Sequence record: PQ438048.1
Reading direction: 5' to 3' (one strand)
From: Escherichia phage MirsaeidiM_Esher1
Length of the DNA: 64,000 nt
Part shown: in pieces, positions 10,609 to 11,413 of the stretch
How the letters are laid out: each line of letters begins with the position of its first letter
Position numbering within the stretch: position 1 is the stretch's first letter
Position numbers and translations under genes: made by a program
Notes under the pieces: generated by a model
Databases searched by the model: none
The model's input: the letters and a program-made list of their open reading frames with translations, nothing else
What the model was told of the DNA's origin: nothing

Positions 10609-10827
10609 ATGCGTAAATTAGTGAGCTTTAATGTTTCAATTCTTGTTGATGAACAAAACGAAGATGTTATTAAAGGTCTTGCAAATAAGATTGCAGGTGG
10701 AATGACGGAAGCTGAAGTGTGGGAAGAATGTGCTCGACTTTATGAGGAAGGTGTTATTGAGGTCTTGGGGGATGAGATTAATATGGACGATGTTGTAAAA
10801 GTAACTGTGGAGCGTATCAATGACTAA
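10609..10827 (+). CDS. hypothetical protein
   Basis: ORF with AAGGAGA RBS. Confidence 0.5.
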   Translation: MRKLVSFNVSILVDEQNEDVIKGLANKIAGGMTEAEVWEECARLYEEGVIEVLGDEINMDDVVKVTVERIND

Positions 10828-11413
10828 ATCAAAACAAATCAATATTGCCAAAGAAATTCTTACCGTATTAAAGATCGCTGATCCTAATTCTGTATTGGCT
10901 GGCGGTGCTGTTCGTGATTGGCGTATTCTTGATATTGCTGGACGTGATCTAGATTTCTACACATCCCTTCCTGCACATCGATCAGAAGAGCAAATACAAG
11001 AATTGATTGCATCTGCTTTGATGGGAACTAATGTTCGTAAACTAGGAAACAAAGAGGCTTCTGACAATTATGAGGGTGTTACTGGTCTTAAACACGTTTT
11101 TGAGTTTGAACGTGATGGTCAGCTTTGCAACCTTATGGTTATGGAACCAAGCGTAATGACAACCTTTCTAAATGAGTTTGATCTGTCCATCTGCCAGGCT
11201 GCATTTGATGGGAAGGATTGTTATTACTCTAAAGATTTTGAAACAACTTTGGAAACAGGGATCTGCTTCTTGCACAAAGATGTTAGAGAAGATGCCAAAC
11301 ATGTTATTAAAATTGCTACACGTTTCCCATATCTTCGTTTTGTGAAAGAGGTTAAGGTTCCACGTCCACCTCAAGTAGATACCAGATTAGAAGAAGATGA
11401 TATTCCTTGGTAA
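10820..11413 (+). CDS. nucleotidyltransferase, CCA-adding enzyme/poly(A) polymerase head-domain-like
   Basis: LAGGAVRDWRILDIAGRDLDFY matches the GGxVRD...DxD Pol-beta-type NTase signature of class II tRNA nucleotidyltransferases; only 197 aa; C-terminus EEDDIPW. Confidence 0.55.
   Translation: MTKSKQINIAKEILTVLKIADPNSVLAGGAVRDWRILDIAGRDLDFYTSLPAHRSEEQIQELIASALMGTNVRKLGNKEASDNYEGVTGLKHVFEFERDGQLCNLMVMEPSVMTTFLNEFDLSICQAAFDGKDCYYSKDFETTLETGICFLHKDVREDAKHVIKIATRFPYLRFVKEVKVPRPPQVDTRLEEDDIPW

Follow-up and report, generated by a model that had tools for sequence, protein, structure and literature searches.

Escherichia phage MirsaeidiM_Esher1 (sequence record PQ438048.1) carries a gene whose product is a small, probably active nucleotidyltransferase (NTase) of the Pol-beta superfamily and a member of the large phage family PHROG 10174/1614; this gene, its relatives and the C-terminus of its product, which resembles that of SSB, the protein that binds single-stranded DNA, are the subject of this analysis. 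The window, that is, the whole stretch of DNA analysed, is 64,000 nucleotides long and comes from a phAPEC8-like myovirus of Phapecoctavirus (Stephanstirmvirinae), and its bases 10000-13000 share 97-98% identity with more than 60 deposited genomes. The start of the NTase coding sequence (Table 1) shares 8 nt with the end of an upstream 72-aa open reading frame (ORF) (ATGA). Its product matches PHROG 10174 (E 3.1e-63, aa 1-128) and PHROG 1614 (E 2.2e-11, aa 4-184), both labelled 'nucleotidyltransferase', and many GenBank and RefSeq records name the gene 'nucleotidyltransferase' or 'putative tRNA nucleotidyl transferase / poly(A) polymerase'. Since public records already carry that annotation, the identity of the NTase is not new. 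An initial annotation of this DNA had described a 197-aa ORF with a GGAVRD...DLD signature and an EEDDIPW end, followed by an SSB ending in DFDDDIPF; the translations contain all of these, with GGAVRD at residues 28-33 and DLD at residues 43-45.

Table 1. Features of the NTase gene and of the genes around it (positions in the window)
Feature	Position	Strand	Description
Family A DNA polymerase	7594..10191	+	Upstream of the NTase gene, in the same co-directional block
NTase coding sequence	10820..11413	+	197 aa; ATG start; stop codon 11411-11413
Motif A, residues 25-47 (VLAGGAVRDWRILDIAGRDLDFY)	10892..10960	+	GG..R loop and DxD metal ligands D43 and D45
Motif F..S-I-C, residues 119-130 (EFDLSICQAAFD)	11174..11209	+	Gad2 equivalent FDFTVCMGAFD (hhalign)
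Last conserved helix, residues 157-170 (EDAKHVIKIATRFP)	11288..11329	+	Positional equivalent of Cca motif D (EDPLRVLRVARF)
Disordered variable linker, residues 179-190 (KVPRPPQVDTRL)	11354..11389	+	pLDDT 60 falling to 51 in the last two 10-residue blocks
SSB C-terminus-like tip EEDDIPW, residues 191-197	11390..11410	+	Extreme C-terminus, before the stop codon
130-aa ORF	11459..11851	+	phrog_16560 at 1e-76; no Pfam match; between the NTase and SSB genes
SSB-like protein, 289 aa	11868..12737	+	OB-like beta domain, four-helix domain, disordered linker, tip FDDDIPF (nt 12714-12734)
Hairpin terminator	12770..12797		Closes the replication block; only terminator-like site in 7000-13000

Predicted fold and relatives of the NTase

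In the AlphaFold2 (AF2) model of the NTase (predicted local distance difference test score, pLDDT, 87.6; predicted template modelling score, pTM, 0.81), the ordered part of the protein stops at about residue 176, after the helix equivalent to motif D. The best structural matches of the model are tRNA CC-, A- and CCA-adding enzymes, and the predicted fold is that of the head and partial neck of class II CCA/poly(A) enzymes, for example E. coli Cca and PcnB, the Aquifex CC- and A-adding enzymes and PDB entries 3wfo-3wfs, 4wby, 3h37 and 3aql. The structure comparison agrees with the class II head surmised in the initial annotation, and both the 197-aa length and the end of the AF2 model accord with its remark that body and tail domains are lacking. 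Class II enzymes are ~400-470 aa long and hold the tRNA with body and tail domains, whereas the NTase has neither. The two are alike in the GGxVRD...DxD signature, the head and neck fold and the spacing of the motif segments, but the NTase differs in an invariant Trp after RD, an acidic core (pI 5.4, net charge about -5) and a replication-gene context. A stand-alone bacterial protein described as a 'CCA-adding enzyme head domain' is represented by the 191-aa 2la3 (Streptococcus pneumoniae NP_344798.1), which has 13% identity to the NTase. When fold and sequence membership were tested, the NTase belonged neither to the MenT (DUF1814) NTase toxins nor to the cGAS/DncV-like nucleotidyltransferases (CD-NTases).

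Motif A of the NTase comprises LAGGAVRDW (residues 26-34) and DLDFY (residues 43-47). Across 186 diverse family members, D43 and D45 are invariant (186/186), G28 and G29 are kept in 185, W34 in 184 and both R32 and K164 in 180, while Y84 is conserved in at least 96%. The conserved DxD, G28, G29, R32, W34, Y84 and K164 indicate that the NTase is likely an active enzyme. Motif A is also the sole stretch of the NTase that aligns by sequence to CCA enzymes: the family profile matched CCA enzymes of the PDB at positions 8-54 (E 0.002), and a PDB search with the single NTase sequence returned noise only. The match to PF01743 (PolyA_pol head) reached 15.5 bits, below the gathering score of 23 (NTase homologs scored 12-21.5 bits), the NCBIfam scan of the NTase gave only a 12-bit CCA match, and PADLOC gave no match. 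The class II resemblance is drawn from motif A and the predicted fold.

Beyond motif A, the pairwise alignment of the NTase with E. coli Cca was not significant, 64 of 300 shuffles being as good, and for this reason the equivalences of motifs B and D stay by-eye inferences. The NTase segment EFDLSICQAA lines up by eye with Cca motif B (RRDLTINALA), with both Arg absent. The RRD of motif B, which serves ribose/triphosphate recognition, is not present in the NTase, the equivalence being drawn by eye and from the fold only; the site reads E-F-D, in which F120 is kept in 165/186 family members and positions 119 and 121 are variable, and C125 is kept in 148/186. The segment EDAKHVIKIATRF of the NTase was aligned by eye to Cca EDPLRVLRVARF, and the spacing between the motif B-like and D-like segments, counted by eye, is 37 aa in the NTase versus 39 in Cca. 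The EDxxR of motif D, which forms the CTP/ATP template, was not found in the NTase, which reads EDAKH and so has His for the templating Arg. Family-wide, the residues at positions 157 and 158 vary, and position 161 is occupied by H or Y, only 2/186 members having R there.

An exhaustive profile search recovered 1033 NTase cluster representatives, 328 of them at E <=1e-10 and nearly all 170-230 aa in length. Precomputed annotations of NTase relatives include a Pfam Gad2 (PF26128) signal, faint or weak throughout. A local hmmscan of the NTase and 19 relatives against PF26128 gave no match, even at E up to 10; because the signal was not reproduced, a profile comparison was made with Gad2 sequences that Yirmiya et al. 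provide in their supplement (bioRxiv 10.1101/2023.05.01.538930). With hhalign, the family profile aligned to the verified Brevibacillus laterosporus Gad2 over 119 columns (E 4.3e-5) and to a 10-sequence Gad2 alignment over 116 columns (96.4% probability, E 1.3e-9), family positions 27-157 corresponding to Gad2 24-142; a single E. coli Cca sequence aligned over 24 columns only. Motifs common to the NTase and Gad2 are [IL]AGG...D[LV]D[FV]Y[FL], a central Q-[IL] strand and FDF[ST][IV]C. Among characterised proteins, profile comparison thus places the NTase family closest to the anti-Gabija protein Gad2, namely to its N-terminal NTase domain.

Gad2 is a phage protein of ~400 aa and a predicted NTase that abolishes Gabija defence, and its SPbetaL7 version is toxic. 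A 2026 review (PMC12904381) lists Gabija as DNA-end-sensing and calls the mechanism of Gad2 'yet to be elucidated'. Gad2 and the NTase are both phage or prophage proteins, and the published list of Gad2 homologs includes short stand-alone homologs of 214-278 aa (bioRxiv 10.1101/2023.05.01.538930). No longer Gad2 paralog was found in the window and 139 kb of the sister genome, where the sole superfamily match was the NTase gene. In Autographiviridae, small putative tRNA nucleotidyltransferases lie between primase/helicase and DNA polymerase, for example in Pectobacterium phages PP47 and Q19 (PMC7693777); Pseudomonas phage Emajogi gp22 is a further one, and some such proteins are annotated as Gad2 family (bioRxiv 10.64898/2026.09.15.751885). 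These proteins resemble the NTase in size and gene position, but an SSB-type tail has not been reported for them. An NTase homolog, gp225 of Vibrio phage ICP1 (L004 3956-4369), has 137 aa and covers the head domain as far as F..S-V-C, without the C-terminal helices; its gene lies near DNA ligase and NAD-salvage genes.

The SSB-like C-terminal tail

The likeness between the NTase end and the SSB tip, pointed out in the initial annotation, held up on comparison of homologs, in which the tip is conserved at the end of a variable, disordered linker. A DDIPW terminus (once DSFPW) is kept in 11 NTase homologs, down to 59% identity, and the 10-17 residues preceding it vary in sequence and length. The last 17-20 residues of the AF2 model have low confidence (pLDDT 51-60) and make no contacts. 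The tail looks functional because a conserved tip stands behind a variable disordered linker, the hallmark of a short linear motif that docks from a flexible tether, as in SSB.

The window has 360 stop-to-stop frames with a length of 50 aa or more, and only those of the NTase and the SSB match a strict tail pattern, defined as C-terminal acidic residues, IP and an aromatic residue. The same two alone matched in 139 of the 149 kb of phage ESCO25, whose genome is near-identical (2258 frames, each 30 aa or longer), and only SSBs and NTase-family members matched in 12 other loci (1412 frames). Within the IMG/VR set, the strict tip is limited to Phapecoctavirus-like loci; a related NTase clade of this set ends ...ESPDVFNF, beside an SSB ending DDDIPF. 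With a looser pattern, the sole biologically real match in ESCO25 was the class Ia ribonucleotide reductase beta subunit NrdB, which ends ...LSDDEELDF (L015 21743-22828) and is encoded outside the window. The acidic-aromatic tail of NrdB docks on the alpha subunit, and it was used as a positive control in the scan.

Tip-like ends are also found in distant NTase branches (P0062, PDDIPW; P0158, SNDIPW; P0199, DDGIPF; P0171, SDDDF; P0018, NDFPW; P0060, WDEEF), amounting to 6/147 family clusters versus 8/755 neighbouring genes (Fisher p = 0.016). The 8 background matches are four SSB-like proteins, one primase-helicase, two function-unassigned proteins and one presumed-spurious 65-aa frame. This primase-helicase, which is DnaB-like and adjoins a family member, ends ...NERADDRVPF (L092 3062-3904), in parallel with the acidic tail of T7 gp4 and its terminal Phe. 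Two phrog_862 proteins of 223-229 aa, encoded 2-3 kb upstream of NTase family members, end ...GDDVPW (L038 727-1416) and ...DKDIPW (L039 2134-2805), so that a Trp-terminated SSB-like tip occurs on other phage proteins as well. No SSB-type tip was seen in the portion of the published Gad2 homolog sequences that was covered, for many of them up to 400 characters. Two gut-virome homologs of the anti-Gabija protein Gad1 contain the SSB tip sequence internally (...EIDDDIPFEHK...; supplementary table 9, bioRxiv 10.1101/2023.05.01.538930), which may be coincidence.

Tails of this kind are known from phage T7. In PDB 6P7E, the gp5 polymerase has bound a peptide that imitates the tail of the gp4 helicase, the gp2.5 tail has been modelled at the same gp5 site, and the terminal Phe of gp2.5 is essential (PMC12339929). 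The SSB C-terminus and the gp2.5 and gp4 tails share with the NTase tip an acidic run, a hydrophobic residue, Pro and a terminal aromatic residue, behind a disordered variable linker, and in T7-type replication modules, as here, acidic-aromatic tails are carried by more than one protein. The NTase differs in that its acidic run is shorter and its tip sits on an enzyme, whereas the SSB and T7 tails belong to an ssDNA (single-stranded DNA) binder or a helicase. Literature searches on NTases with an SSB tail, on Phapecoctavirus NTase function and on phage minimal CCA enzymes turned up nothing relevant and no comment on the tail.

Gene neighbourhood and the adjacent SSB

The co-directional block around the NTase gene encodes, in order, primase/helicase, a 143-aa ORF, Dam methylase, DNA polymerase A, three small ORFs, the NTase, the 130-aa ORF and SSB, and this gene order is kept in Justusliebigvirus and in the metagenomic relative L007. 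The 130-aa ORF occupies the same position in arall, FKP3 and L007; it always lies between the NTase and SSB genes in Phapecoctavirus, Justusliebigvirus and L007 and is a candidate partner of either protein. A sigma-70-like site (11421-11450; TTGACA, 18-nt spacer, TAGGAT, upstream TG) is located in the 45-nt gap between the NTase gene and the 130-aa ORF, and sigma-70-like sites in the region are no more frequent than expected by chance (12 found versus 15.6 expected). An RNA ligase/phosphatase cassette and ten tRNA genes lie 40-50 kb from the NTase gene, on the far side of the whole structural module, and belong to a different transcription unit. The ten tRNAs (Met x2, Ile, Pro, Gln, Gly, Thr, Asn, Ser and Arg; 52656-54739, minus strand) all have an encoded 3'-CCA.

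To describe the context of the family, 80 IMG/VR loci were dereplicated to 52, and their 147 nearest large neighbours were scanned against Pfam. These neighbours include DnaB_C (15), DNA_pol_A (10), Toprim_2 (8) and 5'-3' exonuclease (4), as well as nucleotide-metabolism enzymes; the only RNA-repair functions are one Thg1 and one AAA_33. The N-terminally extended relatives P0158 and P0171 (305-329 aa), two of the proteins with tip-like ends, directly follow a ligase-like gene, and their modules (L012 6943-10625; L010 5655-7608) encode MazG, deoxynucleoside monophosphate kinase, thymidine kinase and NUDIX. Genes for dTDP-sugars (rhamnose-type) are present in the contig of the NDFPW-tailed P0018 (L006 4665-7047) and in the Phapecoctavirus genome (L015 17624-20902).

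The last 29 aa of the SSB match the E. coli SSB C-terminus (NCBIfam PRK09010), and PHROG SSB families are matched as well. Its AF2 model (pLDDT 80) consists of a beta-rich N-terminal domain, a four-helix domain and a disordered linker with the tip. A Foldseek search with this model gave no significant match (best E 0.014), and oligonucleotide/oligosaccharide-binding (OB) folds dominate the weak matches. Most SSB homologs end in F (86/98), predominantly as DDDIPF, and the window SSB ends ...PPMDFDDDIPF, stopping directly after DDDIPF and ahead of the terminator hairpin (12714-12800). Many SSB homologs (P0201, P0213, P0254 and others) extend 15-17 aa further, as DDDIPF-APIGLQYGRNFLHCF, DDDIPF-APIGLQYGMKLLHAMP or DDDIPF-APVGLQYARHAISALYA; among them are a 97%-identical SSB that represents 110 sequences and that of Justusliebigvirus arall (L001 5026-5973). 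Because IPF is then internal and has no free carboxylate, the extension may represent a masked tip or a second docking motif. Among the homologs compared, whether the SSB tail is exposed or extended showed no consistent relation to the NTase tail.

Possible functions of the NTase

We tentatively propose, at somewhat less than an even chance, that the protein is a DNA-directed, Gad2-type NTase that is docked by its mimic of the SSB tip and protects replicating phage DNA from host defences. The tip would insert into the pocket or pockets that receive the SSB tip, which may belong to phage replisome proteins, in the manner of the T7 gp4 and gp2.5 tails on gp5, or to host SSB-interacting proteins. 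Docking would concentrate an acidic enzyme that binds nucleic acid weakly at SSB-coated ssDNA and DNA 3' ends, where it might transfer nucleotides to the 3'-OH of DNA or else to some protein or small molecule located there; the acidic core fits an enzyme that needs recruitment. The most probable role would be a Gad2-like shielding of phage DNA from defences that sense DNA ends or ssDNA. A more specific and rather improbable version is that the tip betrays the site of action of Gad2-type phage NTases: the tip mimic would deliver the enzyme to SSB-coated ssDNA or DNA ends, or to the tip pocket of a host nuclease or helicase, where it would nucleotidylate the DNA 3' end or the bound protein. If true, this would represent an undescribed, SSB-tip-guided form of enzymatic counter-defence, which would also explain how Gad2 defeats the DNA-end-sensing Gabija.

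Several observations weigh against the proposed DNA-directed, docked NTase. About 96% of the NTase family clusters have no SSB-type tail, so that the core function is independent of it, and NTase orthologs of the sister genus Justusliebigvirus share the synteny and end ...DSFNNE or ...LDDAWDDDKI without the tip. The enrichment of tip-like ends is statistically modest (p = 0.09 with a narrower 'core' tip pattern), and the tip of the NTase clade always ends in Trp where SSB homologs have Phe. Verified Gad2 proteins (394-400 aa) have a ~250-aa C-terminal region that the NTase lacks, and function is not transferable from Gad2 to the NTase because only the N-terminal domain corresponds. The window SSB is itself OB-like only through weak fold matches. 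The extended relative of L012 lies beside a ligase-like gene and two genes upstream of an RtcB RNA ligase; this is the only context that suggests RNA ends, and such ends may be a substrate. An early/middle replication block is also typical for unrelated accessory genes.

The same replication-block context, both here and family-wide, would equally suit a housekeeping NTase of the replisome without a role in defence. Docked on the polymerase or helicase of the phage, it might add tails to the 3' ends of DNA or of RNA primers, or process them, as the genome replicates or recombines or as the ends of the linear genome are maintained. We regard this as unlikely, although T7-type replisomes do use acidic aromatic tails for docking to the polymerase (PMC12339929; compare the L092 helicase). 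The family is patchy and absent from most phages with the same replisome, including T7 (PMC7693777), a pattern more in keeping with an accessory or counter-defence gene, and its closest characterised relative is an anti-defence protein.

Somewhat less probable still is that the tail acts as a decoy of the SSB tip that blocks host SSB-interacting proteins, or guides their nucleotidylation (AMPylation or similar), and thereby disables repair or defence nucleases and helicases. The tip obeys the rules of the SSB C-terminus, including a terminal aromatic residue with a free carboxylate, and the tip of the phage SSB is identical to that of E. coli, which makes host pockets relevant. The homology to an anti-defence protein whose action is not understood would also fit, and the acidic core suits a protein substrate better than nucleic acid. 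NTase-fold enzymes that AMPylate proteins exist, for example MntA and GlnE. However, the clade with a class II-like head includes no known protein modifier, the tail is missing from most family members, and a monomeric protein with a single tip would compete poorly with tetrameric SSB unless its affinity were high.

The initial annotation had also offered stand-alone tRNA 3'-end repair, in concert with the tRNA cluster and the RNA-repair cassette, and the evidence argues against this proposal. In this scenario, which we consider very unlikely, the NTase would be a minimal CCA- or A-adding enzyme that mends the acceptor ends of phage or host tRNAs after damage by host nucleases, with the phage tRNAs and the RNA ligase/phosphatase cassette as its partners. 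It draws on the nearest solved folds, which are tRNA CC-, A- and CCA-adding enzymes, on the intact motif A, on the 'ED' kept at the motif D position in the window NTase, on the ten tRNAs and the RNA ligase cassette of the phage, on distant relatives near RtcB or Thg1, and on the name used in public annotation. Nevertheless, the body and tail domains that would bind tRNA are absent, as are RRD and the templating Arg of EDxxR, and both sites vary in the family; an acidic core and a Pfam head-domain match below threshold also speak against it. The genes for tRNAs and RNA repair belong to another unit at 40-50 kb, CCA is already encoded in each of the ten tRNAs, replisome genes strongly predominate among the family neighbours, the family profile is nearer to Gad2 than to Cca, and it is not obvious what a tRNA enzyme would do with an SSB-type tail. 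The second option of the initial annotation, recruitment to SSB-binding partners, agrees better with these sequence comparisons than tRNA repair and may be preferred to it.

Similarly doubtful is an autoinhibitory tail that folds back on the enzyme's own active-site cleft, much as the tails of SSB, gp2.5 and gp32 do on the DNA-binding surfaces of these proteins, or a functionless lineage-specific remnant: in proteins that bind ssDNA, an acidic tail is known to occupy the basic cleft of the protein itself (PMC10359462), and the sister genus, with the same synteny, and most of the family have no tip, but a net acidic core gives little electrostatic reason for folding back, AF2 leaves the tail unpacked, the D-[IF]-P-W end is conserved through 40% divergence while the linker drifts, and similar tips recur in unrelated branches.

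Annotation had already recorded the gene and its family, and the fold class is known as well. What appears to be new is that the family, as judged from sequence profiles, is a sister of the Gad2 NTase domain and not a tRNA enzyme, that it travels with T7-type replisome genes, and that an SSB-type docking tip has been gained in one lineage and, here and there, in others. Hundreds of phage genomes name this gene tRNA nucleotidyltransferase/poly(A) polymerase, a name that is probably wrong; on the evidence presented here, the place of the family is with the anti-defence NTases of the Gad2 type and in DNA-replication modules. The natural tip-bearing variant offers a cheap experimental handle on the site and substrate of Gad2-type enzymes, and the NTase would join, as an enzyme, the few proteins other than SSB that make use of the SSB-tip interaction hub.

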